Part shown: piece by piece, positions 171 to 21,659 of the stretch
Position numbering within the stretch: the stretch's first letter is position 1
How the letters are laid out: each line of letters opens with the position of its first letter
DNA from: an uncultured archaeon
GTDB lineage: Archaea > Asgardarchaeota > Lokiarchaeia > Sigyniarchaeales > SOKP01
Length of the DNA: 21,759 nucleotides
Direction: 5' to 3'
Assembly: GCA_964525635.1 (NCBI GenBank)
Contig: CAZGJX010000076.1
Coordinates: forward strand, 1 to 21,759
Notes under the pieces: model-generated
Seen by the model: the letters and a program-made list of their open reading frames with translations, nothing else
What the model was told of the DNA's origin: nothing
The model's database searches: none
Translations under genes and position numbers: made by a program

Positions 171-1323
171 TAGCGCATTAAATTTATAAGCTTTTTTTGT
201 GTCATTTTTTTTATATCACACACGTATTACATCCTTACAAAAAGCTCGTTCACGCAGTTATATTCATGAAAAAGCTTTCTATCACGAGAAAAACGCCCGA
301 TCATGACGAATTAGTCGAGCTCTACAAGGTCGAGAAGAACTATCGCCTGAAAGAACGATATCATGCCCTTGTCTTGATGCATGAATTGAAAAGCTGCTAT
401 AAGGTTGCAAAAATAATGAAACGCTCGGACGTGACAATCCAATCTTGGGTAAAATCGTTTAACACGGGAGGTTTACCAATGCTTGCTCCAAAGGTCTCTC
501 CAGGACGACCATCGAGATTATCGGTGGAACAAAAAGAAGAATTAAAAAAAGACGTGTTAACGCACCCTCGAGAATTAGGCTACGATTTCAGCAACTGGGA
601 AGGTAAGCACGTTTCGAAACACGTCAAGAACAAGTTTGGCATTCTTTTAAAAGTGCGGCAATGTCAATATCTCCTTCAAGACCTTGGTTTTACCCTGCAA
701 AGACCGAGATATGCCTTTCCCAAGGCAAGTTGCGATGATCAAGAACGATTCGTCCAAGAGTTCAAAAAAAGCTCTACAATCTCGACCCAAACGATTTAAT
801 CCTTTTTCTTGACGAGGCAAGCATCCAATTTGCTTCGACCATCACGCGAATGTGGTCGCTCAAGGGGCAGCAACCAAAAATATATACTCATGGCAGTCGC
901 AAGCGTCAGTCGCTCATTAGTGCCGTCGATCCAATAGGAGGCAACTTGTACGTGGCCTTGACGGACGGCTTAAAAACGGAACAATTTCAGCATTTCTTAG
1001 AAGACCTTCTTGCAAGGTATCCGCATTCTAAAAAACTTGTCATCGTCTTGGATAATGCCAGGGTTCATCACGCCAAGCGGTTAACACCTTTTTTAGAGTG
1101 CAATGAATATCGACTTGAATTATTGTATTTACCACCTTATTCTCCTGACCTCAATCCAATGGAATGGTGTTGGAAGTTCTTGCGTAAAGAAGTCACTTAT
1201 AACACTTTTTTTGTTGATTTCAAGTGCCTCAAGCGCGAGATCGTGAAATTCGTGCTAAAACATAAACGATCATCTTCTGAAATTCAATCTCGATGCAATT
1301 ATACTAAACTATATAATGCGTTA
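171..1323 (+). mobile_element. IS630-family insertion sequence (~1.15 kb)
   Basis: Imperfect terminal inverted repeats TAGCGCATTA (171-180) and TAATGCGTTA (1314-1323), flanked by TA at 169-170 and 1324-1325 (IS630/Tc1-type target duplication). Encodes HTH plus DDE transposase and is visibly more GC-rich than its flanks. Confidence 0.9.
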
Positions 1324-1326
1324 TAA
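266..1326 (+). CDS. IS630-family transposase, two ORFs joined by a -1 frameshift at the A7 run (764-770)
   Basis: ORF1 (likely ATG 266, MKKLSIT) has the winged-HTH region with GRPSRLS and LGFTLQRPR. The -1 frame from the A7 run reads KLYNLDPNDLILFLDEASIQF into ORF 850-1326, supplying FLDEA, VLDNARVHH and LPPYSPDLNPME catalytic motifs. Confidence 0.9.
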
Positions 1327-5291: not shown

Positions 5292-6749
5292 ATGGAACAT
5301 AAAAAAGATATGAAAAAAAAATTAACTTCACAAGGAGGTGCTCCTGTATCAGATAATCAAAATTCATTATCTGCAGGTGAACGGGGACCCTTATTAATGC
5401 AAGATGTGCATTTATTTGAGAAAATGGCACATTTCAATAGAGAAAGAATACCAGAAAGGGTAGTTCACGCTAAAGGTGCTGGAGCATATGGTACTTTTAC
5501 AGTAACTCATGATATCACAAAATATACTAAAGCAAAAATATTTTCAGAAATTGGTAAAAAAACCAAACTTGTAGTTCGATTTTCAACTGTAGCAGGTGAA
5601 AGAGGTTCTGCAGATACAGTTAGAGATGTTCGAGGTTTCGCTATTAAGTTTTATACAGAAGAAGGTAATTGGGATTTAGTAGGAAATAATACACCCGTAT
5701 TTTTTATAAGAGATCCATTAAAATTTAGTGATTTTATTCATACACAAAAACGCATGCCACAAACAAATCTTAGATCTCAAATAATGTGGTGGGATTTCTG
5801 GTCACTTGTTCCAGAAGCTTTACACCAAGTCACAATTTTATTCTCTGATCGTGGTATACCTAGAGGATTTCCACATATGAATGGATATGGTAGTCATACT
5901 TATAGTTTTCTTAATGCAAATGATGAGCGTTTCTGGGTAAAATTTCATTTCAAAACTTTACAAGGTATAAAAAATTTCATGCAAGCTGAGGCAGATGAAC
6001 TTGCTGGTAAAGATCCAGACTGGGCAACGCGAGATCTTTTTGAGAGTATTGAAAGAGGTGATTATCCAAAGTGGGAATTATCTATACAAATCATGCCAGA
6101 GAAAGAAGCTGAATCATACAGATGGAATCCATTTGATTTAACCAAAGTTTGGCCCCATGGAGATTATCCTCTTATAAAAGTAGGGATAATGGAACTTAAT
6201 AAAAATCCTGAAAATTATTTTGCTGAAGTGGAACAGGCAGCTTTTGATCCATCTAATAGAATTCCAGGTATTTCTTTTTCACCAGATAAAATGTTACAAG
6301 CAAGGACTTTTTCTTATGCCGATGCACATAGATATAGACTAGGAGTTAATTACCAAAGCTTACCTGTTAATAAACCAAAAACAGGTAATGTTCACAACTA
6401 CCACCGGGATGGATCAATGAGATTTGATGGAAATAGTGGCCCTGCAGTAAATTATGAACCAAATAGTTTTGGCGGTCCTACAGAAGATCCTGCTTTTAAA
6501 GAACCTCCCTTAAAAATCTCAGGAGATGCTGATAGTTATGATCAACCCACAACGGACGATGATTTTGTCCAACCAGGCAATCTCTATAGATTATTACCCT
6601 CTGATGAACAAGATCGTCTTATTGAGAATCTTGTTAATAGTTTAATAACCATTCCCAAAAACATTCAGGAGCGAATGGTAAACCATTTCTTAAAAGCAGA
6701 TAAGACATGGGGAGAGAGAGTAGCAAAGAAATTAGATGTAAATATTTAA
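5292..6749 (+). CDS. katA: Monofunctional small-subunit haem catalase
   Basis: Distal His motif [35 protein letters not shown], and proximal Tyr motif [14 protein letters not shown]; 485 aa. Alternative start at 5310. Confidence 0.97.
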
Positions 6750-9222: not shown

Positions 9223-11358
9223 ATGAGTGAAAATAAATATGAATTTAAAGCAGAAATTAAAAAATTGCTAGATATTCTTAGTAAATCTCTTTATCAACAT
9301 AAAGAAGTATTTTTAAGAGAGTTAATAAGTAATTCGGTTGATGCACTTAAGAAAGTTCATTTTATATCTCTAACAGACAAAGATATTCAAGATTTTAATG
9401 AAGAATTGAAAATTGAAATTATTACTGATTCAATTAACAACACTATTACTGTTAGAGATACAGGAATTGGTATGAATAAAGATGAATTAATTAGCAACTT
9501 AGGAACAATTGCAGGAAGTGGTTCTCAAAAGTTCTTGGAGCAATTAAATCAATCTCAACAAATAGATTCAAAAAAGCTTGATTTGGATGTTATTGGTCAA
9601 TTTGGAATTGGATTCTATTCGATTTTCATGGTTGCAGGTAAAGTAAATGTTATTTCTAGATCCTATAAAAAAGAAGAAGAAGCTTATCAATGGGAATCTG
9701 ATGGAACAGGAGAATTCACAATAACTAAAAATGATAAACAAAAACGTGGAACAGATGTGATATTATATATAAATGATGAGGATAAAGAATACTTGGATAA
9801 GTTTAAAGTTGAATCTATAATTAAGAAATATTCAAATTATGTATCCTTTCCAATTTATGTTTCTGAAATAAAAAAAGAAGAGAAAAAGGAAGAGAAAAAG
9901 GAAAAGAAAAAGGAAGAGAAAAAGGAAGAGAAAAAGGAAAAGAAAAAGGAAGAGAAAAAGGAAGAGAAAAAGGATGAAAAAGAAGCAGAAGAAGAGATAG
10001 AACCTAAACCTGTGAATGAATTAAATCCTTTATGGAAACGAGATAAAAATGAGATAAAGGATGATGATTATAAAAATTTCTATCATTTTATTTCTAATAG
10101 ATATGATGAATATACTCATATGATTAATTATAAAGTTGATGGAAGCGTACAGTTTCACACTATTCTCTTTATACCAGAATCAGATCCTCTCACGTTTTTA
10201 AGACCAGATGATGAATATGGATTATCTCTTTATTCTAAAAGTGTTATGATTATGAAAAATTGTAGTGAACTTATTCCAAAATGGATGAGATTCATTAAAG
10301 GTGTTGTAAATTCAGATGATATACCATTAAATATCAGTAGAGAAACGATACAAACAAATCGAGTAATGATGAAGATTGAAAAATTGTTGATTAAAAGAAT
10401 CCTTCGAGAGTTTGAAGAAATTGGAGAAAAGGACCTTGATAAATTTAAGAAGATATGGAGCAATTTTGGTATATATTTTAAGGAGGGAATGATTTCAGAT
10501 CCCTTTAGAGCAGATAAGCTCTTGAATTATCTTAGATTTAAAACCTCTAAAACCACTGATGATGAATATAGAAGCTTGGAAGATTATATAAAAGATTTTC
10601 AAGAGGATCAAAATGAGATCTACTATCTAGTAGGAGAAAATATTAGTACGATGAGACAATCTCCACACTTAGGTTATTATAAGGAAAATAACTTAGAAGT
10701 TATTTTATTTGATGAACCAATTGATAATTTTTTAATGATGAATATCCATGAGTATAAAAAATCTGTTGGAGAAGGCGATTCTGCCGAAATAATAACTCAT
10801 AAATTTTCACCTGTAGATGTAACTGAGCCTGTTAAAGATAAGGAGAAAGACAAAGAAGATGAAAAAGAAAAAAAAGAAAAATCAGATATAAAAATTCCTG
10901 AGAATATTAAAAAATTTTTGGAACATGTAAAGTCAATATTAGGAGAAAAAATATTAGATACAAAAATCTCTGATAGGCTTTATGATAATCCTTGTCGACT
11001 GGCTAATCCTACAGGAGGAATGACTTCAAGTATGCAAAGAGCTATGAGATATTGGACGAAGACGGAGTCAGGAAAAGAATTTCAAGCACCCCGTAAAATA
11101 TTAGAATTTAATCAAGACCATCCATTAATTAATGGACTTATAGAACTTTTTACCTCAAATCCTGAAGATAGTAAAATAAAACCAGTTATTAACCAATTGT
11201 TTGAAAATTGTCTCTTAGCAGAAGGAGATCTCCCCAATCCATCATTAATGGTACCTCGAATTAATCAATTAATTGAGATGTTGATTACTGATAAAATAGA
11301 ATTTAGTGAATCAAAAGATAATTCAGATGATACTAAAAAAGAGATTAAAGAGAGTTAG
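9223..11358 (+). CDS. htpG: Molecular chaperone HtpG (Hsp90)
   Basis: GHKL motifs FLRELISNSVDA, DTGIGM, NLGTIAGSG, IGQFGIGFYS, and middle-domain DIPLNISRETIQ. Confidence 0.97.
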   Translation: MSENKYEFKAEIKKLLDILSKSLYQHKEVFLRELISNSVDALKKVHFISLTDKDIQDFNEELKIEIITDSINNTITVRDTGIGMNKDELISNLGTIAGSGSQKFLEQLNQSQQIDSKKLDLDVIGQFGIGFYSIFMVAGKVNVISRSYKKEEEAYQWESDGTGEFTITKNDKQKRGTDVILYINDEDKEYLDKFKVESIIKKYSNYVSFPIYVSEIKKEEKKEEKKEKKKEEKKEEKKEKKKEEKKEEKKDEKEAEEEIEPKPVNELNPLWKRDKNEIKDDDYKNFYHFISNRYDEYTHMINYKVDGSVQFHTILFIPESDPLTFLRPDDEYGLSLYSKSVMIMKNCSELIPKWMRFIKGVVNSDDIPLNISRETIQTNRVMMKIEKLLIKRILREFEEIGEKDLDKFKKIWSNFGIYFKEGMISDPFRADKLLNYLRFKTSKTTDDEYRSLEDYIKDFQEDQNEIYYLVGENISTMRQSPHLGYYKENNLEVILFDEPIDNFLMMNIHEYKKSVGEGDSAEIITHKFSPVDVTEPVKDKEKDKEDEKEKKEKSDIKIPENIKKFLEHVKSILGEKILDTKISDRLYDNPCRLANPTGGMTSSMQRAMRYWTKTESGKEFQAPRKILEFNQDHPLINGLIELFTSNPEDSKIKPVINQLFENCLLAEGDLPNPSLMVPRINQLIEMLITDKIEFSESKDNSDDTKKEIKES
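9877..9972 (+). repeat. In-frame tandem repeat of 8 x 12 bp (GAAGAGAAAAAG / GAAAAGAAAAAG) within htpG
   Basis: Unit order A-A-B-A-A-B-A-A (36-bp higher-order period), purine-only on the + strand, encoding EEKK/EKKK. Confidence 0.95.
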
Positions 11359-11542: not shown

Positions 11543-12718
11543 TTAAAAACTAATTCCAGCCTGAGCGGACATTAACAGAAGTTCCGTCATTGTACCATTA
11601 TAATCATTTTCTATTTTGAAATAATTGTTTTTTCGAGTAAAAGGAATACTATAAATAAATTTATGGTTTTCAGTAGCAAATGGAACTTTTTCAACAAATT
11701 CCTTCATTAAAGGATGAAATTCAACTGGAATATTCTCTTTGGTCGGACATACCATACCGAAACATATACGTTCTATTACTTCAGATTCCCAGTTAAAAGT
11801 AAAATATATAGTCCTAGCGTCACAACATTTTTCTAATACTTCAGATGAATTTATTTCAAAGTTTAAATTTTCGAGGATATTTTTGTACAATTCTAGGCTT
11901 GATGTTTTTGGTTCTTTAACCATAAAGTAGATGTTCATAGATTTATGTAAAAAGTCTAATGCGATTAGAGAAAATTTGGTTAATCCAAATTTCTTAAAAA
12001 ATTTTGTATAATTTACAATACTCTTAGGTATATTTGACATAGAATATAAATTTTTGATTGATGTTGGAGCGATTAGAGACCATATTTTAGCTAATCCTTT
12101 TCTTACATCTAAATCTACCCCATAGCCTAGCACATTAAATTTCTCTTTGATTTCGGATAACATTTTATGCAAAGGGTGCCCGTTTAGATTGATTAAATCA
12201 TTATTTATTGCAATGACATAAGGATCTGGATTATGTGGGTTCATAAGTTCCACATATCGTACAGAAATATCTCTTAAATCTTTATGAAGGGTGGTTGTTC
12301 TAATCGAGAGCGATGAACCTGTGAAAAAAGTTTTGTAAGCGTTAATTACCTTCCAAATTTTTTTCTCATTACATTTTACTCCTGTGAAATTACTGATTTT
12401 TTTAAGATCTGAGACTAAGATATCCAAGTCTATATTGTGTTGGAAGCCCCCTTTGACCAATACTAAGTATTTCTCATAATCTACACCCAATTTTTTCAAA
12501 TCATCTATCATAGTCGGTTGAAACGCAGGCGGAGTGACTTCAAGCAGAGCAACAATTAAGTCAACTTCTTTAATTTGTATTCCCCCCCTTTCAGTACATC
12601 TTTTAATTGTTTTATCATAAAGCGCACTTGATATAATTGGTCTAACAGATTCAGGCATATTTAGAACTACATTATTGTATAAACTTTCAACTTCTGGGTT
12701 CCATTCCAATTTTATCAT
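11543..12718 (-). CDS. ABBA-type aromatic prenyltransferase (NphB/CloQ-like) with N-terminal DUF2621/PCP_red-like module, copy 2
   Basis: SIRTTT, DPY..A, GHP, YGVDLDV..GLAKIW, LDF..KS.NIYF, IYFTFNWES..IERICF and YFKIENDY match PT-barrel motifs of the NphB/CloQ family. Start overlaps the upstream stop (ATGA). Confidence 0.82.
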   Translation of the reverse strand: MIKLEWNPEVESLYNNVVLNMPESVRPIISSALYDKTIKRCTERGGIQIKEVDLIVALLEVTPPAFQPTMIDDLKKLGVDYEKYLVLVKGGFQHNIDLDILVSDLKKISNFTGVKCNEKKIWKVINAYKTFFTGSSLSIRTTTLHKDLRDISVRYVELMNPHNPDPYVIAINNDLINLNGHPLHKMLSEIKEKFNVLGYGVDLDVRKGLAKIWSLIAPTSIKNLYSMSNIPKSIVNYTKFFKKFGLTKFSLIALDFLHKSMNIYFMVKEPKTSSLELYKNILENLNFEINSSEVLEKCCDARTIYFTFNWESEVIERICFGMVCPTKENIPVEFHPLMKEFVEKVPFATENHKFIYSIPFTRKNNYFKIENDYNGTMTELLLMSAQAGISF

Positions 12719-14115
12719 CTCTTTTTATAATTTATTATTTTTCCATCTACATGTTTATGGTCGTTTTCATACCAACAGTATGGAAATGAACCTAAGATAT
12801 CACCTGTAAGTGCTTCAGTAAGAACTCTACAACCTCCACCACATAATTCAAGATGAGAACAATCTGCACATTTCCCGTGACGCTTTCGATCTCGGATGTC
12901 TTTATAGATCTGGGAATTTAATACATCTATAAAATCGTCAGTTAAAGCATTTCCGAGGGTCGTTGCTGTAGGATACCCGGTGGGATATATAGTCCCATCT
13001 ACTTCAATACCCATCATTGCTTTACAAGCTTGGCACCCAACACCCCAATCAATGGTGGCCAATTCCTCATCATTTTTTGGTACTTCCATAAAAGGTGTCA
13101 TTTCATAAATCTCAAACACAGGAATATTGCCCGCTTTTCCATTTCTGATCGCATTAATAGCTCGATTGTACTTGAATTCGTATAATCTCTTATACTGTTC
13201 CATATTAAGGCCAATTTCAGACCAGTATTCATCCGCTCGGCTACCCTTTTGTTTAACTACAGGTCTTAGAAAAGGAGCAGCACCCCATTTTTCTGCTAAA
13301 GCTTTCATTTCTTCTAATTCATCAATATTTTGTCTCATAATAGTCATGGAAGCACATACAAATAAGCCATACTTATGACAGGTTTTTATTGCTTTTTCCG
13401 CATAGGATAATGAATTTGGAAATCCACGTATTTTATCGTTCTTTTTTGGATCAGCACTATCAAAACTAACAAATACATGACTCATCTCGTAATCTTTGCA
13501 CATTTTCGCAAATTCTTCTGTAAATTTAACTCCATTGGTTATTATCGCATGATTATAATCTTTTTCGCAACAATATTTCATAATTTCTCCAATATCTTTA
13601 CGTAGAGTAGGCTCCCCTCCAAACCATATATAAGTTCCATGTCTCCCCTGCTTTTGTAGACTTGTTTCAAGATTTTCAATAATTTGGCACCATTTCTTTA
13701 CTGAAAGTTCGTCTCGAGGTTTGCGATCTGTTGCACAATGAATACAGTTCATATTGCATTTATCGGTAAGATACATAGCGAAATGTATCACACCAGGACG
13801 GAAGCCCTCAGCAAACTTTTCCCAAGAAACATTTAATCGGTCTCGATATTTTTTAATATTGATATATCGTTCCATATCCACTCCAAGAGATTCTAACTCC
13901 TCGACGATTTTCGATTTAAATGCTTCAGGAACAACATCAAAAGTCCCTAATATAAAATCCGATAAATTCACAATCGAACTTTGTCGGTCAATGCATCGTT
14001 TTTCAACTGCTTTAATTGTTGTTGGTTTTATTATTGAATGAAGGTTTTCTGGGAATTTTTCTAAAAGTTTTTGAAAGGTGTCTTCCGCTTCTTGATTCCA
14101 TTCTTTTTTTCTCAT
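12715..14115 (-). CDS. Radical SAM/SPASM protein with N-terminal DUF2621/PCP_red-like module, copy 2
   Basis: CNMNCIHC (CxxxCxxC), FGGEPTLR, ITNG, VSFDS; SPASM GCQAC...CADC...CGGGCR...PYC. Confidence 0.92.
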   Translation of the reverse strand: MRKKEWNQEAEDTFQKLLEKFPENLHSIIKPTTIKAVEKRCIDRQSSIVNLSDFILGTFDVVPEAFKSKIVEELESLGVDMERYINIKKYRDRLNVSWEKFAEGFRPGVIHFAMYLTDKCNMNCIHCATDRKPRDELSVKKWCQIIENLETSLQKQGRHGTYIWFGGEPTLRKDIGEIMKYCCEKDYNHAIITNGVKFTEEFAKMCKDYEMSHVFVSFDSADPKKNDKIRGFPNSLSYAEKAIKTCHKYGLFVCASMTIMRQNIDELEEMKALAEKWGAAPFLRPVVKQKGSRADEYWSEIGLNMEQYKRLYEFKYNRAINAIRNGKAGNIPVFEIYEMTPFMEVPKNDEELATIDWGVGCQACKAMMGIEVDGTIYPTGYPTATTLGNALTDDFIDVLNSQIYKDIRDRKRHGKCADCSHLELCGGGCRVLTEALTGDILGSFPYCWYENDHKHVDGKIINYKKR

Positions 14116-14187
14116 TTTATTTCTAACTCATTTTTTTTACTTTATTGTTTATTTTTTTACCTTTTTAGGTCGAAAGTATTTCTTCCG

Positions 14188-14227
14188 TCTTGCCCTTATT
14201 CTTGCGTGAAGGACAGGAAAGACAAGA
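14188..14227 (-). other. Putative intergenic stem-loop in the operon transcript
   Basis: On the transcribed strand UCCUGUCCUU (or the adjacent UCUUGUCUUU) pairs with AAGGGCAAGA around a loop containing C-GCAA-G. GC-richer patch in an AT-rich spacer. Confidence 0.4.
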
Positions 14228-14254
14228 AAAAAATTTTAATATTTGTAGATTTTT

Positions 14255-16261
14255 TTAATTTCCCATTGCATTTTTGTGAGCTTTTGCATATAGTGTGATT
14301 AGGGGTATACACTCCATCAGTTTTTCTGTATCTCCCTCCACAGCATATTTTCCACTCATAGTTGCTTTAATTGGATCCTCTTCTCCTAATAATATCTTTT
14401 GAATTGTGTCAAAATCTGTTTTATGAATCATCTTTGGAGCGTCCAAATCTGAACATTTACCCATCCCCCATTCTATTTTGGAATCAATAAAAGCTTGCCA
14501 GAAACTCATCTTTGAATTGTTTGTAACTTGATATTCAATTACTAAAGGAGCAATAGAAGTAATCAATGTTTGTAATTCCGATAGATCACTAAGTGAATTC
14601 ATAAATTGAGAGATGTAATCTTTCCAATCACCTTCATCTTTCAGATCTACTGAATCTTGAGTAGTGCTATTAGCAGTCTCTTCCAATATTTCTGAACTAT
14701 AAGGTTGTGCTTTTATAGTCTCAACTTCATCTTCACTCAAAAATTTTTTCAAATCAATTTCATTCTCAATCATTAGATCAAGTAAGTCATGTTGAAATTG
14801 TGGTGGCACTAATTTAATTAGAATCGCAATGACAAGATCCTTCGTTACTTCATCCATCTTTTTTCGCTCAGCAGTTCTTTCTGAGATATTTCTAATAGCT
14901 TTAGAAGCAGATTTTTGCATATTTTCAGGAATTAGTTCTAATGTCTCTTCAAAAAATTTTAGGGCTTCGGGTGTCCATGAAATTCCATAGATAGTCCCCT
15001 CTTTTGTGTCTTCTATTGGGCTGGTGATTGTTCTTTCATCTTTCGGTAAAAATTGTTGACCTGCGTTAAAATAATTATACAAATAAGCAGAATATTTTTT
15101 ATATGTTTCCGTTTTCTCTTTAGAAGGTAAGAAATAGGCCTTATTTACCCATTCATAGCAATACTTACATTTAACACCGCAATTTTCTATACATCTTGAA
15201 CCTTGAAATGGAAGATTTTCAATAAAACCATCCAATTTATCACATCTTAATTGTGCATCAAAATCCGGAATCCCAATTTGTAAATCATCATCACTTTGAT
15301 AACCTCCTATTTCTTCTTGAAGGGATGTATATTCAGGAAATTGACTTCCAGCTAGTTCCAAGGGATTTGTTTGAAAATTATATCCATTTAACATATTCCC
15401 AAGATTAGAATCATAGAATCTTTTTGCATATGCTTTTAAAGCATGAATTATCCAAGGTGTATGATATCTCCTTCCAGATATTTTATAATAGTTAATTCCT
15501 GTTTTTAGATAATAATCGATATCAGAAGGTTGAATCCATTTCGCCATCATAATCTGCTCTGGATTGAACGCTTTGGCACTTTGACATGCAATAACTGACC
15601 AATCATTATAGTATCCTTTTAATACATGATGCTCTTGACTTGCATGTGAAGTTTCAGAATAATGGAAAAATCTAAAAGGACACTCATTTACACAAGCATC
15701 ATTAAGGAGGATTTCCAAATCACAATCTAGTTCCTCTCTGAATTTTTTAAGCAATGGAAAATTTCGATTAACCATTACTGACAAGTTTATTATTCCTTCT
15801 TTCCCAATAATTTCTTGCCAATCATAACCCATAGTAAGTGTAGTTACTTCAGCAATTAAGGAAACTTTTACCTTGATATTAGGATGATAATACCGTACAA
15901 ATCTCGCTAAATAAGGATCTACAATCGTGATATATTCAACGCCCAGATCATCTAACCAATCCAATTCTTTAAGAGCTTTGTCTTGCGCTTTTGAATTAAA
16001 CTTGCTGAAGCCAAGACACTTTCCATTCCATAGCCATGTAAATCCCACACCTATATCATGGACTCTATTAATATAATCTTCCATCTCAGAGTAATCTTTT
16101 CTTGGCATTAAGAAAAAGGGACGCCCAGAGCCTGTAAAGCCAAGATCTCTTGTACCATAAAAATCATTTACAACTTTGAGTAAATCATGATTTTTTTCTA
16201 TCTCATCTAATAAATCTTTCTTCCAATTACATGGAACTGATATACGTAATGAATTAACCAT
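14255..16261 (-). CDS. U32-family Fe-S protein fused to an internal DUF2621/PCP_red-like module and a C-terminal SCP2 domain
   Basis: U32-like core (FYG...GSGR, LDWLDDLGV..ITIVDPYL, NRNF, LLNDACVNECPF..H, YKISGR) and Cys cluster CIENCGVKCKYC. Helical module at aa ~429-507. SCP2-type tail TDFDTIQKILLGEEDPIKATMSGKYAVEGD. Confidence 0.8.
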   Translation of the reverse strand: MVNSLRISVPCNWKKDLLDEIEKNHDLLKVVNDFYGTRDLGFTGSGRPFFLMPRKDYSEMEDYINRVHDIGVGFTWLWNGKCLGFSKFNSKAQDKALKELDWLDDLGVEYITIVDPYLARFVRYYHPNIKVKVSLIAEVTTLTMGYDWQEIIGKEGIINLSVMVNRNFPLLKKFREELDCDLEILLNDACVNECPFRFFHYSETSHASQEHHVLKGYYNDWSVIACQSAKAFNPEQIMMAKWIQPSDIDYYLKTGINYYKISGRRYHTPWIIHALKAYAKRFYDSNLGNMLNGYNFQTNPLELAGSQFPEYTSLQEEIGGYQSDDDLQIGIPDFDAQLRCDKLDGFIENLPFQGSRCIENCGVKCKYCYEWVNKAYFLPSKEKTETYKKYSAYLYNYFNAGQQFLPKDERTITSPIEDTKEGTIYGISWTPEALKFFEETLELIPENMQKSASKAIRNISERTAERKKMDEVTKDLVIAILIKLVPPQFQHDLLDLMIENEIDLKKFLSEDEVETIKAQPYSSEILEETANSTTQDSVDLKDEGDWKDYISQFMNSLSDLSELQTLITSIAPLVIEYQVTNNSKMSFWQAFIDSKIEWGMGKCSDLDAPKMIHKTDFDTIQKILLGEEDPIKATMSGKYAVEGDTEKLMECIPLITLYAKAHKNAMGN

Positions 16262-17405
16262 TTATTGCACCTCGTTCAATTTTTTGTAATTTTTTTTCTA
16301 TTACCGATAGTACTTCCTTTTTCACTGATACATTCGCTTCATTACATTTTTTTATATAATCCTTGCAAAATTCATTCATTTCATCCTCCTCTGGATAAAA
16401 ATGTTCATAAGGAAAATTTTCAACAAATTCCTTAATTACATAATCTGGAAGTGAAATCATTGACTCTTCGATTGTCTTTTCTAAGCCATAATTTCCATAT
16501 GGATTTGGTATATTAAGGAATTTACAGAAATCACCTTCAAACGATTTGTTCATATAAGAATTAAGAATATCTAATGTCTTTTCTTTAGAAAACCCATATG
16601 TAAAAAGTAGAAAAGTATCATATCCCATATTCTCATATTTTTCAATGTTAAATGGAGATATCCATCCTGCTTTTAGAATCCGTTCTGGTTCTTCTAAACG
16701 CTTTTTCCAACATTCTAATAAAGGAAAATCAAATGCATTTTCAACATCAGATATCTCAATCTGATTAGAAGATACAGGAGAATCCATAGTTCTATGACTT
16801 TGCATATTATGGTGATCAAACCAATAAATGCATCCCCAATTACATCCCAAATTAAGGGGCAATATGTAGCTTGTATCGCTAATTTTTTGATTTTCTTCTT
16901 GAATTTTTGTGAGATTATTCATTACATAGGAATATCTTAAGATATCCGGGTGTAAGATAATCGATTGAGATCCAATGTTGAAATAGAGTTTAGCACGATT
17001 TGTTGATGTTACAAATTGGGCATAGGATAAGAAAATGTTTAATGACGGATAATTTTTCTTTATAAATGCTAAGATATTAGGCGAAGAAACTAGTACATTT
17101 TCAAAGCCTAATTCAATCATATCCTCAAGAAATTTTCGATATGCCCTAAAATGATCAACATAAGATTCTAGATTTCCTTGGCATGAAGAATCAATGCCAA
17201 AAATAGGAGTTAATCCCTTATCTTGCACAAATTTAGTATAGTTCTCAAATTCTTCACGATCTGGTAACTTTTCCGGCAAAAAAATTGACCCATTTCCTAT
17301 GGGATTATGTGGCGTATGTAATATAATGTGCGTCACAGGAAGTTCCTTTTTTGTAATAGCGGAAATTAATTCCCTATTATAATCTCCTTCAATTATAAAT
17401 TTCAT
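16254..17405 (-). CDS. Divergent U32-family protein
   Basis: Colinear with the neighbouring U32 core (IGNGS, VLVSSPNIL, LNLGCNWGC-x5-H-x5-H, AGWISP) but lacks KISGR. Stop overlaps the next start by 8 bp. Confidence 0.72.
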   Translation of the reverse strand: MKFIIEGDYNRELISAITKKELPVTHIILHTPHNPIGNGSIFLPEKLPDREEFENYTKFVQDKGLTPIFGIDSSCQGNLESYVDHFRAYRKFLEDMIELGFENVLVSSPNILAFIKKNYPSLNIFLSYAQFVTSTNRAKLYFNIGSQSIILHPDILRYSYVMNNLTKIQEENQKISDTSYILPLNLGCNWGCIYWFDHHNMQSHRTMDSPVSSNQIEISDVENAFDFPLLECWKKRLEEPERILKAGWISPFNIEKYENMGYDTFLLFTYGFSKEKTLDILNSYMNKSFEGDFCKFLNIPNPYGNYGLEKTIEESMISLPDYVIKEFVENFPYEHFYPEEDEMNEFCKDYIKKCNEANVSVKKEVLSVIEKKLQKIERGAING

Positions 17406-17498
17406 TATTTAAATCATCTTTGTGGTTTTTTTTTTTCAATTATTTAAACACCTCATTTTTTTTTTATTTTTTAGTTAATTTTTAAAAAAAAGTTCATT

Positions 17499-18674
17499 TT
17501 ATAGATCTAATCCTCCTTCTGCCCCCATTTTTAAAATTTCAATCATCGTTCCTGTATAATCGTTTTCTACTTTGAACCAGTTTTCGTTGGGAGAAAATGT
17601 TAAACTATAAATAAAAGTCCGCTTGTCAGTAGCGAAAGGAGCTTTCTCGACAAAAGTTTTCATTAATGGATGAAAATGTATAGGGACTTGATCTTGTCCT
17701 TCAGGACAGAGAACTCCAAAGCAAACTCGCTCTATTTTATCAGATTCCCAATTAAAAGTGTAATAGATAGTAGTGGCCTGACGACACCGTTCCATTACTT
17801 CAGGAGGACCCACTTTATAATTAAGATCTTTAAGCATAGCTTCACACTTTTCTCGTGTCACCTTTCCCGGTTTTACAATGAAATATATATTCACCGTCTT
17901 ATGACAAAAATCGAGAGCAAATAAGCAAAAATCAGATAAACCATGTTTTTTAAAATAATCTTTCAGCGTTAATATGCTCTTCGGAAACGTTTCCATTGAA
18001 TAGACGCCTTCGACAGGACAAGGTGTGATAAAATTCCAGAGTTTTGTTAATCCTACTCTAACATCCAAATCTACGCCATGACCCATAATTTCAAACTTAT
18101 CGTAGATCTCATAGAACATTTTATGGAGAGGGTGTCCATTTTTTTCAAGTAAACCCTCATTAATAGCTGTAATATAGGGATCAGGATCATGTTTTACCAT
18201 CAACTCAACATATCTTATTGAAACATCTCTTTCTTCTTTTGGTTTAGTAGTAGTTCTAATTGAGATTGAAGAACCGGAGAAAAAAGTTTTATAGGCATTT
18301 AGAACCTTCCAGATTGCTTCTTCATTACATTTTACTCCAGTGATGTCTCCAATTTTATTTAAATCCTCAACGGTTTGATTTAGATCTACATTATTTTTAA
18401 ATCCACTTTTAACATAAACCATGTATTTTAAATAATCAATACCTAATGATTTTATATCTTCAATCATTCCAGGCTGTATCGCTGGGGGAGTTACTTCAAA
18501 TATAGCTACTACTAGATCTCTCTCTGCAATAGTTTTTCCTTTTCGATCCTCGCATTTTTTTTCTGCTGTGTTAAACAGAACTGGTCCAATAATAGGTCTA
18601 ACATTAACGGGCATTTTCAGAACCATATTTTCATAAAGTTGTCTAACTTCTGGTTGCCATTCCATTTTTTTCAC
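17499..18674 (-). CDS. ABBA-type aromatic prenyltransferase (NphB/CloQ-like) with N-terminal DUF2621/PCP_red-like module, copy 1
   Basis: SIRTTTKP..RDVSIRY, DPY..A..EGL, GHP, GVDLDV..GLTKLW, LDF..KTVNIYF, IYYTFNWES..IERVCF, WFKVENDY. Same 391-aa length as its paralogue. GTG start (or ATG at 18665). Confidence 0.83.
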   Translation of the reverse strand: MKKMEWQPEVRQLYENMVLKMPVNVRPIIGPVLFNTAEKKCEDRKGKTIAERDLVVAIFEVTPPAIQPGMIEDIKSLGIDYLKYMVYVKSGFKNNVDLNQTVEDLNKIGDITGVKCNEEAIWKVLNAYKTFFSGSSISIRTTTKPKEERDVSIRYVELMVKHDPDPYITAINEGLLEKNGHPLHKMFYEIYDKFEIMGHGVDLDVRVGLTKLWNFITPCPVEGVYSMETFPKSILTLKDYFKKHGLSDFCLFALDFCHKTVNIYFIVKPGKVTREKCEAMLKDLNYKVGPPEVMERCRQATTIYYTFNWESDKIERVCFGVLCPEGQDQVPIHFHPLMKTFVEKAPFATDKRTFIYSLTFSPNENWFKVENDYTGTMIEILKMGAEGGLDL

Positions 18675-18690
18675 TTTTATAATTTTATTT

Positions 18691-20106
18691 TTATTTTTTT
18701 GATTGAATTAATTTTGTTTCCTTCTCTGGAGATAGATAGTCTTCATAGTCATGATCATTCTCATGCCAACAATATGGAAACGATGCAAAAAAGTCACCCG
18801 TTTCACATTCGGCATGCACCCTACATCCTCCACCACATAATTCAAGATGATGACAAGTAGCACATTTTCCTGTTCGCTTTCTATCTCTGATATCTTTAAA
18901 CAGTTGAGAATTCATTATTTCTTCAAAATTCTGTTCTAAGACATTTCCAAGGATTAGTTCAGAAGGATAATCACATGGAAAAAAATCTCCATTGACATCA
19001 ACACCTGAGACCAAACGACATGCTTGACATCCAACGCCCCATTCTAAAGCTGTAAGTTCTTCATCATTTATAGGATATTCCATAAACGGTACCATATCAA
19101 ATGTATTAGCTCTATTTAGAGTAGTAGCTTTTCCTTCTCTTATGGCTTCAACCACGTTTTTATACTTAAATTCATAGAATTCTTTATATTGTTCAGGAGT
19201 TAATCCAATTTCATCCCAATTATTTTTAGCATTTCTTTGCTTAATTACGGCTCTAAAAAATGGGATGGCGCCCCAACTTTCGATTTTTTCTTTTAGATCC
19301 TCAAGTTCATCAATGTTTATTCTCATTATTGTTGGTGTGCATATGACAAAATGGCCATACTTTACAGCTAATTTAACTGCTTTCTCTGCAGTCTCATATG
19401 CATTTGGCACACCTCTTATCTTTGCAGCTCTCTCAGGGCGAGTACTATCAATACTAATAAAAATATGGCTCATCTTGACCTCTGCTAATAATTTTGCAAG
19501 ATCATCGGTAAACATTATACCATTTGTCGCTATTGCTTGAAGATATTCTTTTTTATAACAATAATCGATTAAATCCTTAAGATCTTTTCGAAGAGTAGGC
19601 TCTCCTCCAAACCATATATAGCAACCTTTTCTTCCTTGCTTATTCAATGTTTGCTCGATATTTTCCACAATCTGAATCCAATGCTCTGTAGAGAGTTCTG
19701 GACGCGCATCATGAACCTCAGCAGCACAATGCATACATTTTTGATTACAGCGATCAGTAAGATACATTGTTATATGATAAACATTAGGTAAAAATGCTTC
19801 CCCTATTTCATCCCAAGATTTATAATACTTTTGTCTTATCTCTGAAAGTTGGACATAACGTTTAGCATTAATTCCTAATTTATGTAATGTACTCACTAGA
19901 GTAGCTTTTAAAGACTCTGGTGTAATTTTTACTAATGCTGTTATCAAATCGTCTTTGCTTACATAACCAGAATTCCTTAATCTCGCATTCTCCTCTGCAT
20001 TATCATGTAAGAGAGGCTTTACTGCGGAGCGGAATCCTTCGGGAACTTGATTTGTAAGAGTTACAAATAGTTCATTTACTTCACTTTTCCATTCCAAATT
20101 TTTCAT
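18691..20106 (-). CDS. Radical SAM/SPASM protein with N-terminal DUF2621/PCP_red-like module, copy 1
   Basis: CNQKCMHC, FGGEPTLR, ATNG, ISIDS; SPASM GCQAC...GDFFPC...CATC...CGGGCR...PYC. Confidence 0.93.
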   Translation of the reverse strand: MKNLEWKSEVNELFVTLTNQVPEGFRSAVKPLLHDNAEENARLRNSGYVSKDDLITALVKITPESLKATLVSTLHKLGINAKRYVQLSEIRQKYYKSWDEIGEAFLPNVYHITMYLTDRCNQKCMHCAAEVHDARPELSTEHWIQIVENIEQTLNKQGRKGCYIWFGGEPTLRKDLKDLIDYCYKKEYLQAIATNGIMFTDDLAKLLAEVKMSHIFISIDSTRPERAAKIRGVPNAYETAEKAVKLAVKYGHFVICTPTIMRINIDELEDLKEKIESWGAIPFFRAVIKQRNAKNNWDEIGLTPEQYKEFYEFKYKNVVEAIREGKATTLNRANTFDMVPFMEYPINDEELTALEWGVGCQACRLVSGVDVNGDFFPCDYPSELILGNVLEQNFEEIMNSQLFKDIRDRKRTGKCATCHHLELCGGGCRVHAECETGDFFASFPYCWHENDHDYEDYLSPEKETKLIQSKK

Positions 20107-20196: not shown

Positions 20197-20943
20197 TTAA
20201 CAAATTAGAACCCCTATTTTGCTTATATATATAGAAGAATTTTTAAAAAGAGTATTTAGGAAATTTTGTAACCATTCTAAATTTCTAGAATAATTAGTTA
20301 AAAAAGAGAAGAAGCAAGAACATAGAGGAAAGAAATATGGCAAAAAATAATAATGTTTTTTATAAAAAATAAGAAAAAAATAGAAAATTTCATTTTGAAA
20401 GAGTTTATACCGGAATTTTTCCTCACCTATAGTTCCCTTAAATTCCTCATAATTTATGCTATTAAAGTTTTCATTATTCTTTTGGTTTAAATGATGAAAT
20501 TCAAATAAATACCCAATATTATCATTTAAATCAAAATTATTAGAATTATTATCAAGATTTTTAAAATTATCATAAGAGCAAGGGAAATAAATATCATATT
20601 CATATAAATATCCTTCAATATAACTTTTTTTTATATATTGATAAAATAATCTTTCAAAATAACTAGCTAGATTAATAAGAATAAAAAAATCAATCACTTG
20701 ACCAAGGCTTAAATAAATTTTAGCATTTTTTTCTGTAATAAACCAAAAAATATTGATATCTGAAAACCATGGAACAAAAATTGAACTATTGGATGAAATA
20801 TAATTTTTTAATAAACTATCAAAATCTGTAATATTTTGTATGAAGAGATATAAAAATGAGATTGGTAGAGATAATGTAAGGAATACCAAAATTATAATAA
20901 CTAAAATCTTTAAATTTTTGGATTGTTTTTTATATTTGTCCAT
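20197..20943 (-). CDS. Hypothetical membrane protein
   Basis: 248-codon ORF in very AT-rich DNA with an N-terminal TM helix and an aromatic-rich C-terminal segment; no recognisable motif. Confidence 0.5.
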   Translation of the reverse strand: MDKYKKQSKNLKILVIIILVFLTLSLPISFLYLFIQNITDFDSLLKNYISSNSSIFVPWFSDINIFWFITEKNAKIYLSLGQVIDFFILINLASYFERLFYQYIKKSYIEGYLYEYDIYFPCSYDNFKNLDNNSNNFDLNDNIGYLFEFHHLNQKNNENFNSINYEEFKGTIGEEKFRYKLFQNEIFYFFLIFYKKHYYFLPYFFPLCSCFFSFLTNYSRNLEWLQNFLNTLFKNSSIYISKIGVLIC

Positions 20944-21125: not shown

Positions 21126-21659
21126 TTAAGATTTAACTTTATGTTCTTTAAATTTCATATAGATAGAAGTTTTAGAAATATTATATTTATAATCTCTAGG
21201 AAATATTTTTATAATTTCTCTTATAAGATTATCAATTTTTTGTTTGGTTATCTCGGGGTGGGTTTGATTTAAATCAGGATCTAATTTGTGTAAATATACA
21301 GAAACTTCTATTTTAGAATCATTGTTGATCAATAAATTAACAATTTTCTGTAAAAAATCAAGAGATGGGGCATATTTTTTTTTATCTTGTATATCAATTA
21401 CAAATAAAATTTTTTTCGTATTAACCAAATAACTATAGAAATTCTTTAAATATTCATTTATGTATTCTTTTTGACCACCAAACTCCCAAACAATATATTC
21501 TTGATCAATTGCTTGATACTTAATAAAATCAATATGAATAGTAGGTTTTATTTCAGAAAAAGAGGATAAATTACGGAATCCTTGAAAATATTTTAAAATT
21601 GAGGTCTTTCCACTATTACTGAGTCCCAATAGTAACATTCTAGAATAAGGTTTAGACAT
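21126..21659 (-). CDS. Ras-superfamily small GTPase (Arf/Rag-like, Asgard type)
   Basis: G1 GLSNSGKTS, G2 KPT, G3 WEFGGQ, ILFVID, G4 HKLD, G5 KTSI. Confidence 0.9.
   Translation of the reverse strand: MSKPYSRMLLLGLSNSGKTSILKYFQGFRNLSSFSEIKPTIHIDFIKYQAIDQEYIVWEFGGQKEYINEYLKNFYSYLVNTKKILFVIDIQDKKKYAPSLDFLQKIVNLLINNDSKIEVSVYLHKLDPDLNQTHPEITKQKIDNLIREIIKIFPRDYKYNISKTSIYMKFKEHKVKS

Follow-up and report, generated by a model that had tools for sequence, protein, structure and literature searches.

A portable five-helix domain on unrelated enzymes of a Lokiarchaeial gene cluster and its possible role as a pathway-level adaptor

Introduction

Why does one small helical domain recur on enzymes of three unrelated folds that are encoded in a single operon? 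This question is raised by a window of 21,759 nucleotides (the whole stretch of DNA analysed here, contig CAZGJX010000076.1 of the uncultured Lokiarchaeia assembly GCA_964525635.1), in which two radical S-adenosylmethionine (SAM)/SPASM enzymes, two ABBA aromatic prenyltransferases and a fusion of a U32 protein with an SCP2 domain all carry the domain, hereafter termed the module. An earlier note on this window proposed that the module is a docking tag, or more generally a shared interaction module, for these enzymes. The module is identified here as a domain that is reused on different enzymes of apparently the same pathway in different lineages. The reading that is tentatively favoured is that the module may be a pathway-level adaptor; its main rival, a serious one, is that the module is a lid acting only on the enzyme that carries it.

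Five copies of one domain in the operon

Six co-oriented genes occupy the minus strand of the window at 11543-20106, in the order P0006, P0005, P0004, P0003, P0002 and P0001. The genes and their domains are listed below, with E-values in parentheses.

18691..20106, minus strand: radical SAM/SPASM enzyme P0006, 471 aa (Pfam Radical_SAM 2e-22, SPASM 9e-11)
19843-20106, minus strand: module of P0006, residues 1 to ~88 (module profile ~1e-35)
17499..18674, minus strand: ABBA aromatic prenyltransferase P0005, 391 aa (Pfam PTase_Orf2 1e-54, residues 98-382)
18411-18674, minus strand: module of P0005, residues 1 to ~88 (module profile ~1e-37)
16254..17405, minus strand: divergent U32 protein P0004, 383 aa, without module (Pfam Peptidase_U32 7e-5)
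14255..16261, minus strand: U32-module-SCP2 fusion P0003, 668 aa (Pfam U32 2e-5, SCP2 1e-4, DUF2621 0.006)
14717-14992, minus strand: module of P0003, residues 424-515 (module profile ~1e-32)
14303-14575, minus strand: SCP2 domain of P0003, residues ~563-653, after a variable linker
12715..14115, minus strand: second radical SAM/SPASM enzyme P0002, 466 aa (Pfam Radical_SAM 4e-25, SPASM 5e-7)
13852-14115, minus strand: module of P0002, residues 1 to ~88 (module profile ~1e-35)
11543..12718, minus strand: second ABBA prenyltransferase P0001, 391 aa (Pfam PTase_Orf2 1.5e-48)
12455-12718, minus strand: module of P0001, residues 1 to ~88 (module profile ~1e-37)

The sequence pattern by which the earlier note defined the module, W-x2-E-x4-[FY]-x7-P-x40-P-x14-[GE]-[IV]-[DN]-x2-[KR]-[YF], was matched against the window in each of its six reading frames. 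It gives exactly five matches, all on the minus strand and at the places claimed: 19855-20091 (P0006), 18423-18659 (P0005), 14741-14977 (P0003), 13864-14100 (P0002) and 12467-12703 (P0001). These matches correspond to the N-termini of P0006, P0002, P0005 and P0001 and to residues 429-507 of P0003. The claim that the five copies align without gaps is essentially correct, apart from a gap of one residue in a single alignment column, which belongs to the copy on the U32 fusion. When copies from different enzyme classes are compared in pairs by BLASTP, the E-values are 3e-17, 1e-9 and 8e-6, and this similarity is far beyond chance. When a profile of the copies, as called for in the note, is searched against every open frame of the window, the five copies are recovered at E 1e-23 to 1e-38, and the next-best frame scores at E 0.02-0.09. 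The divergent U32 protein P0004 scores at noise level (E ~7), in agreement with the claim that it lacks the module. On these sequence comparisons, the five stretches are copies of one domain of ~85 residues.

A prenyltransferase gene directly follows each radical SAM gene, once with a gap of 16 nt and once with an overlap of 4 nt between the P0002 stop and the P0001 start. P0003, which combines U32 and SCP2, adjoins P0004, and P0004 is similar to the U32 part of P0003 (BLASTP 5e-14). In this way the operon contains two U32 paralogues and SCP2, the composition of a UbiT/UbiU/UbiV-type module for O2-independent hydroxylation, as does a second cluster of the same genome.

This second cluster is detected when the genome assembly (4.45 Mb, 245 contigs) is searched with the module profile. 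The genome contains ten copies of the module, and all of them are located in two paralogous clusters, the one in the window (contig C76) and a larger one:

G000 contig C15, ~8.7-23 kb (L011 4772-18993): second module-bearing cluster

The carriers in the second cluster are a U32 protein (with the module at its C-terminus), two radical SAM/SPASM enzymes, one prenyltransferase and a U32-module-SCP2 fusion. The members without the module are a B12-radical SAM enzyme, one U32 protein and two radical SAM/SPASM-SCP2 fusions. None of the ten module sites coincides with the two canonical, housekeeping U32 genes or with the two free SCP2 genes that the genome holds elsewhere. No candidate gene for a receptor of the module is encoded in either cluster. 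Two further B12-radical SAM genes are located upstream of the cluster on contig C15.

It was considered whether radical SAM/SPASM enzymes carry either the module or SCP2, never both, and whether this argues for docking of the module to SCP2. This argument is not used. The contrast is weak, because the SCP2-fused enzymes belong to a different subfamily (24% identity).

Carriers of the module in other organisms

A profile search of 1.84 billion representative proteins detects 273 relatives of the module at E<=1e-3. About half of the best 150 relatives are proteins of 80-100 residues, and some of these are surely contig-end fragments. The longer matches, when clustered with the module masked, form three groups, consisting of U32 proteins (30 rows), prenyltransferases (17 rows) and radical SAM/SPASM enzymes (9 rows); the clustering took in the window's own six proteins, and the database matches in these groups number 28, 15 and 7, respectively. 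The partners that are each represented by a single case are a SAM methyltransferase, HpaB, a PNPOx-like protein, a VOC/glyoxalase protein, a LuxC-radical SAM fusion and a thioredoxin-like 2Fe-2S domain preceded by two tandem modules. A fusion of the module to a flavin mononucleotide (FMN) reductase (FMN_red) is detected by fold search. The position of the module is variable. It is N-terminal on the Asgard radical SAM enzymes and prenyltransferases, C-terminal or internal on U32 proteins, and C-terminal on one bacterial radical SAM enzyme and on the prenyltransferase P0017. Tandem modules are present in P0066, P0078 and P0134. The module is a real portable domain, as the earlier note supposed, since it occurs N-terminally, C-terminally or internally in these relatives.

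The N-terminal module is present in 112 of 118 close homologues of the radical SAM/SPASM catalytic part (54-79% identity), which come from several Asgard lineages, Thermoplasmata, Pseudobacteroides, Polyangiaceae and the cultured Myxococcus stipitatus. Judging from these homologues, the radical SAM/SPASM enzyme is the commonest carrier among close relatives, and the other carriers vary with the lineage. All prenyltransferase relatives at >=49% identity carry the module. Those at 38-47% identity have 306-316 residues, approximately the catalytic domain alone, and no module is detected by a profile search of the contigs of one of them (P0225). Within the phylum, 47 of 400 genomes carry the module and most of these are from the window's own family; none of the three other genomes of the window's genus carries it. 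In a tree of 146 module segments, which has few columns and many unresolved forks, the partner labels are clustered beyond shuffled labels. Contig-end fragments inflate the free-standing class in this tree, and no order of events is drawn from it.

Gene neighbourhoods of the module

The set of tagged enzymes varies from locus to locus. In two related metagenome contigs (L039 and L040), the radical SAM/SPASM enzyme and the U32 protein are tagged and the prenyltransferases are untagged. In a contig with 53% G+C, both U32 proteins are tagged and the module is C-terminal on the radical SAM/SPASM enzyme. The high-G+C bacterial loci, which were read by crude open reading frame (ORF) calls, and several of the contexts described here, which are short metagenome contigs, are to be read accordingly. 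These bacterial loci are as follows.

L055 783-6530 and L057: Thermoanaerobaculia
L054 and L056: Polyangiaceae
P0439: Myxococcus stipitatus

In one genome of the Thermoanaerobaculia, the gene for an untagged prenyltransferase ends 3 nt before the gene for a tagged radical SAM enzyme, and two P450 genes follow. The same contig encodes, ~12 kb away, an HpaB-like protein and a free SCP2 of the type found in the clusters, and a module is located there beside a SAM methyltransferase gene. A Polyangiaceae contig contains HpaB, a tagged radical SAM enzyme, a flavin adenine dinucleotide (FAD) oxidoreductase and two P450 genes, with a second module ~10 kb away. The locus of the methyltransferase fusion P0103 encodes HpaB, HemN-type radical SAM enzymes, a P450, a flavin halogenase-like enzyme and SCP2 of the same type. 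The module-radical SAM/SPASM enzyme is 58-78% identical between lineages, including those of the bacterial clusters. The bacterial clusters may be oxygen-using counterparts of the Asgard clusters, in which P450 or HpaB would replace U32 and a SAM methyltransferase would replace the B12-radical SAM enzyme.

In P0407 (762 aa), an untagged PTase_Orf2 domain is joined to the module and the radical SAM/SPASM enzyme in one polypeptide. P0405 (578 aa, partial) is likewise a natural fusion of PTase_Orf2, module and radical SAM/SPASM. In Rosetta-stone fashion, these fusions link the prenyltransferase to the radical SAM enzyme.

Two further neighbourhoods contain other partners of the module or a free-standing copy.

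L043 97-2939: operon encoding a 2x[4Fe-4S] ferredoxin, a 243-aa protein, a NuoE-like 2Fe-2S protein with two modules, and a NuoF-like FMN subunit
L014 3675-7274, L041 3746-7088 and L042 3741-7053 (the latter two from Candidatus Omnitrophota): common neighbourhood of a free-standing module

In L043, the module is part of an electron-transfer complex. The order of genes in the three loci with the free-standing module is an AMP-binding enzyme, PNP_UDP_1, a free-standing DUF2621 protein, a protein of ~150 aa without a Pfam family (194 aa in L014), and an ApbA-like reductase. The L014 copy adjoins type II polyketide synthase (PKS) genes (ketosynthase KS, chain length factor CLF, acyl carrier protein ACP and cyclases) and a polyprenyl synthase gene. 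At another locus (L058; G403 contig C5 179228-180114), two adjacent VOC/glyoxalase-like proteins, relatives of P0152 and P0137, have a C-terminal module each.

P0040 was examined as an independent module-SCP2 protein and is not used as such. At its locus (L053 817-2877), a 415-aa U32 gene is followed after 30 nt by a 260-aa gene that starts inside the module and runs into SCP2. P0040 looks like part of a split or frameshifted U32-module-SCP2 gene, because it begins inside the module behind the U32 gene.

Fold and family relationship of the module

When folded alone by AlphaFold2 (AF2), the module consists of five helices with only a two-residue bridge, at a predicted local distance difference test score (pLDDT) of 89. 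According to this model, the module folds on its own as a domain of five helices. The resemblance to DUF2621 (PF11084) and PCP_red (PF08369), which the earlier note had pointed out, holds, but the window copies score under both Pfam cut-offs. Their DUF2621 scores are 15.9-24.2 bits against a gathering cut-off of 27.7, with P0005 unmatched, and the best score genome-wide is 26.4 bits. These matches cover only the C-terminal 85 of the 139 profile positions. Only the U32 copy matches PCP_red, with 15.1 bits against a cut-off of 32.5.

The link to the two families is solid, because intermediate sequences gathered by profile bridge it. Of the 146 module segments gathered in this way, 108 have a DUF2621 match at E<=0.01 (best 8.7e-13), and a PCP_red match at this threshold is found for 46 (best 2e-11). 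The relatives above the DUF2621 cut-off include P0042 (31.1 bits) and P0152 (48.1 bits), and Omnitrophota proteins that are named 'DUF2621 family protein' fall in the module family. A motif, W-x2-E ... P-x3-R ... A-E ... D ... T-P, is common to the module, DUF2621 and PCP_red. The positions conserved family-wide are W6, P22, T62-P63, D53, G45 and G78. The module model superposes on DUF2621-annotated models of the ESM Atlas with template modelling (TM) scores of 0.82/0.79 (root mean square deviation 2.0, 89 aa) and 0.81/0.87, the models being predicted on both sides, and PCP_red-bearing BchZ superposes on it with a TM score of 0.66 over 66 residues. From the profiles and predicted models, the module is a divergent relative inside the DUF2621/PCP_red superfamily and is not a member by the Pfam thresholds.

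The solved structures give much weaker similarities. A Foldseek search of the PDB gives nothing at E<=1e-3, and the PCP_red nuclear magnetic resonance structures 2KRU and 2L09 appear at E 0.35-0.42 with TM scores by target of 0.57-0.60. VIA-align gives Z 6.9 for 2L09 and Z 6.1 for 2KRU over the whole small chains, with rows of AAA+ lid domains and cyclin folds equally high, and the top score of its wide search (Z 8.0, the BchI lid domain) is inside the noise range of helical models. When the two profiles are searched against the sequences of solved structures, nothing scores under E 0.07; the weak similarities are to the helix-strand-helix of Lon/AAA+ lid domains and to histone folds, with 2KRU at 0.27. 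A feature search of the ESM Atlas gives no usable match. Membrane binding was also considered and judged unlikely, the modules being neutral to strongly acidic (net charge +4 to -11).

Mounting of the module on its enzymes

The connector between the module and the prenyltransferase is exactly 10 residues long in all 56 of the 56 orthologues compared and shows 53% identity. The mean pairwise identity among these orthologues is 63% for the module and 61% for the catalytic domain. Conservation is thus equal in the two, and the module is therefore under selection. The AF2 model of full-length P0005 has a pLDDT of 91.9 and a predicted TM score (pTM) of 0.85. If the module floated freely, a pTM ceiling of ~0.76 (299/391 residues) would be expected. 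The observed score exceeds this ceiling, and the module is predicted to be confidently placed against the prenyltransferase. The constant connector and the confident full-length model therefore suggest a rigid mount, instead of a tethered, dockerin-like tag. The docking tag proposed in the earlier note is therefore only partly supported: the portable domain that is found on unrelated folds and restricted to the clusters is confirmed, and a tag on a tether is not.

The arrangement around SCP2 is different. In the U32 fusions, the linker between the module and SCP2 is 33-58 aa long and 39% identical (16 orthologues), and the flanking module and SCP2 are 56% and 66% identical, respectively. These sequences and the P0005 model are consistent with a rigid enzyme-module unit, beside which the lipid carrier would swing on a flexible tether. 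Complex prediction for the prenyltransferase module with the module-linker-SCP2 part of the U32 fusion gives scores of 0.31, 0.31 and 0.10, all under the mark of 0.32, from runs without controls, and is counted neither for nor against an interaction.

Possible role of the module

The tentatively favoured reading is that the module may be a pathway-level adaptor that provides a common surface on unrelated enzymes. In a conserved pathway, an ABBA prenyltransferase would be paired with an enzyme of the radical SAM/SPASM type, and the greasy product would next be hydroxylated and methylated in the presence of a lipid carrier of the SCP2 type. For this tailoring, anaerobes would use U32 and B12-radical SAM enzymes, and aerobes would use P450, HpaB and SAM methyltransferases. 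Judging from the gene content, the product of the Asgard pathway seems to be a prenylated lipid that is made oxygen-free. The module, rigidly mounted on the enzymes of this pathway, would offer one common surface, by which the enzymes that share the carrier-held hydrophobic intermediate would stay together or alternate at the SCP2 carrier. In the U32 fusion, this carrier would swing on its 33-58-residue linker next to the module. The occurrence of the same domain on three unrelated folds in one operon bears out the basis on which a shared interaction module was proposed; that the module binds a protein, and that its target is another module, SCP2 or an untagged partner, is inferred.

Several observations argue for an adaptor. 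The tagged enzymes are the radical SAM enzyme, the prenyltransferase and the U32 protein in Lokiarchaeia, and the radical SAM enzyme and the SAM methyltransferase in Thermoanaerobaculia, in which the prenyltransferase is untagged and SCP2 is free. A purely enzyme-intrinsic role fits poorly, because the tag shifts among the enzymes of the pathway by lineage and is absent from the prenyltransferase of P0407. The fusion of this untagged prenyltransferase to a tagged radical SAM enzyme fits a tag that is needed only between separate polypeptides. The family is rare and tied to the pathway, which supports an adaptor, as do the portability of the module, its restriction to the two clusters of the genome and a conservation equal to that of the catalytic domain. 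The NuoE-like 2Fe-2S carrier, which is encoded beside a NuoF-like gene, is a subunit of a multi-subunit complex without a lipid substrate and is also counted for an adaptor. It is rather doubtful, though conceivable, that the module pairs with itself or with the SCP2 carrier and thereby builds a soluble metabolon that passes on a prenylated aromatic lipid. In such a metabolon, the intermediate would be handed between the radical SAM enzyme, the prenyltransferase, the hydroxylase and the methylase, and the assembly would be rewired by moving the tag among the enzymes.

Other observations weigh against the adaptor. Five Asgard genomes contain a single module, on a U32 protein, and two complete Omnitrophota genomes contain a single, free-standing copy. 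Because such single-copy genomes exist, module-module pairing between different enzymes cannot be the general function of the family, which counts against the homotypic assembly that the earlier note gave as an example. A classical tethered docking tag likewise agrees poorly with these genomes and with the rigid mount. SCP2 was not found in every module-bearing locus that was fetched. A universal binding surface is not identifiable from the module sequences, and the positions conserved family-wide look like helix caps and core. The constant connector of the prenyltransferases and the pTM score above the ceiling for a floating module also count on this side.

These latter two features would be explained if the module were a lid or gate that acts in cis, packing on its own catalytic domain or on the homodimer partner and closing the entrance for a hydrophobic substrate, with no assembly between different enzymes. 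The lid is likened to the PCP_red domain at the C-terminus of BchB, which presumably caps protochlorophyllide across the dimer. PCP_red is located on the tetrapyrrole-binding subunits BchB and BchZ, single-copy genomes exist, and nearly all partners of the module (U32, prenyltransferase, radical SAM, SAM methyltransferase, HpaB, PNPOx-like and VOC proteins and, by fold search, FMN_red) act on aromatic or hydrophobic small molecules, all of which counts for a lid. A preprint on DPOR (dark-operative protochlorophyllide oxidoreductase) does not discuss the C-terminal helical domain of BchB. However, the close prenyltransferase relatives at 38-47% identity (306-316 aa) and the bacterial prenyltransferases do without the module, the fused prenyltransferase of P0407 has no copy of its own, a single lid would need to suit three unrelated folds, and neither the NuoE-like ferredoxin fusions nor the free-standing forms have an obvious pocket to close. 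The cis lid is therefore regarded as unlikely, although it is the most serious rival of the adaptor. The NuoE-like fusion, in which the module is on a thioredoxin-like 2Fe-2S domain encoded beside 2x[4Fe-4S] ferredoxin and NuoF-like genes, would rather suit a module at which a shared electron donor (ferredoxin, flavodoxin or reductase) docks to serve the iron-sulfur and flavin enzymes of the pathway. Most carriers (radical SAM/SPASM, U32, HpaB, PNPOx-like, BchB/BchZ) are indeed redox enzymes and depend on a donor from outside, and an FMN reductase fusion is found by fold search. Such a docking site is nevertheless decidedly improbable: the prenyltransferases and SAM methyltransferases need no electrons and yet are tagged, in the second cluster the tag is absent from the B12-radical SAM enzymes and from the radical SAM/SPASM-SCP2 fusions, and no candidate gene for an electron donor is found in either cluster of the genome.

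The rigid mount, and the free-standing forms that adjoin enzymes in the conserved Omnitrophota neighbourhood, would also be compatible with a stabilising or solubilising accessory domain, which has no specific ligand, would be similar to the small helper proteins that other biosynthetic enzymes have, and was spread by domain shuffling within clusters. The restriction of the module to one pathway, its reshuffling among the enzymes of this pathway and a conservation equal to that of the catalytic domain are unexpected for such a domain, which is considered very improbable. The least credible explanation, with hardly any likelihood, is that the module recognises the leader peptide of a ribosomally synthesised and post-translationally modified peptide (RiPP), as a helical counterpart of the RiPP recognition element (RRE). 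Its N-terminal placement on SPASM radical SAM enzymes parallels that of known RREs, and the radical SAM domains match several peptide-maturase models at 1e-21 to 1e-34, far under the cut-offs of these models. However, the module is all-helical and not winged-helix, no plausible precursor-peptide ORF is seen on the operon strand, and the SCP2 domains and ABBA aromatic prenyltransferases point to a lipid-like small molecule.

Comparison with known systems

Small portable docking domains are known from cellulosomes (dockerin-cohesin) and from PKS and non-ribosomal peptide synthetase (NRPS) assembly lines, in which they are attached by flexible linkers and have a distinct receptor. The module is similar to these domains in that one small portable unit is present on catalytically unrelated proteins of one system, but differs from them in its constant 10-residue connector and predicted packing on the enzyme. 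PqqD-like RREs are another example, in which one recognition domain is shared by unrelated tailoring enzymes and is placed N-terminally on SPASM radical SAM enzymes, among others. The RRE is a winged helix with a three-stranded sheet, whereas the module is all-helical, and the context in the window is lipid-type with no precursor gene found. DUF2621 has the same fold and motif as the module, and PCP_red (at the C-terminus of BchB/ChlB, and in BchZ) has the same motif and a probably similar fold, but tagging of multiple enzymes within one operon is a feature of the window and is absent from the descriptions of both families.

The closest functional analogy is provided by the SCP2 proteins UbiJ and UbiT, whose systems are a precedent for SCP2-centred assembly. 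UbiJ binds the intermediates of ubiquinone synthesis and organises several of its enzymes in a complex, and UbiT is proposed to do likewise for the U32 heterodimer UbiU-UbiV (PMC6747719, PMC9499169). A ubiT-ubiU gene fusion exists in Zymomonas (PMC6747719). Like the window, the Ubi systems combine a pair of U32 iron-sulfur proteins, an SCP2 carrier and several tailoring enzymes for one prenylated aromatic lipid. The Ubi systems differ from the window in that no DUF2621-like module is described and assembly is credited to UbiJ/UbiK, and in that the prenyltransferase is UbiA in the ubiquinone pathway and a soluble ABBA enzyme in the window.

A literature search with DUF2621, PF11084, PF08369 and IPR013580 gives no relevant paper and, in the papers that could be searched, no described function for either family. 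No paper is found on this tag or gene combination, 'PCP_red' retrieving only unrelated papers and ABBA with SPASM one irrelevant review, and none on an aromatic prenyltransferase in Asgard archaea. This study adds that the radical SAM enzyme predominates as a carrier in different domains of life, that bacteria have putatively oxygen-using clusters in which a methyltransferase is tagged and SCP2 is free, that an untagged prenyltransferase occurs in a fusion with a tagged enzyme, that the connector has a constant length of 10 residues, and that some genomes have a single copy.

Should the module be an adaptor for assembly or hand-over, there would be an explanation of how unrelated soluble enzymes can work jointly, and without oxygen, on an intermediate that does not dissolve in water. 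DUF2621 and PCP_red of the chlorophyll enzymes BchB and BchZ would then have a function, and a small portable tag could become available for the engineering of enzyme assemblies. The pathway seemingly exists in an oxygen-free form in Asgard archaea (U32, B12-radical SAM) and in an oxygen-using form in bacteria (P450, HpaB, SAM methyltransferase). A cultured Myxococcus carries a tagged radical SAM enzyme, and the role of the module is therefore testable in the laboratory although the Asgard host is uncultured.

Other genes of the window

One further gene is located just upstream of the operon.

20197..20943, minus strand: membrane-like ORF P0230, 248 aa, a long ORF in 21% G+C DNA

P0230 matches no Pfam family. 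A paralogue of 243 aa is present within the second cluster (L011 6287-7018; BLASTP 6e-14, 37% identity over the N-terminal 125 residues), and P0230 is probably a member of the cluster.

The remaining genes observed in the window are as follows.

21126-21659, minus strand: Gtr1/RagA-like small GTPase gene, next to the operon and in keeping with a Loki-type Asgard archaeon
9223-11358, plus strand: Hsp90/HtpG homologue (Pfam HSP90 8e-114)
5292-6749, plus strand: full-length catalase (Pfam 5e-200), in a presumed anaerobe
197-1326, plus strand: IS630-type transposase, broken into a helix-turn-helix (HTH) ORF and a DDE_3 ORF

The Hsp90/HtpG homologue contains, after the N-terminal ATPase domain, a run of ~45 residues that consists almost wholly of K and E. 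This run resembles the charged linker of eukaryotic Hsp90, and not bacterial HtpG.

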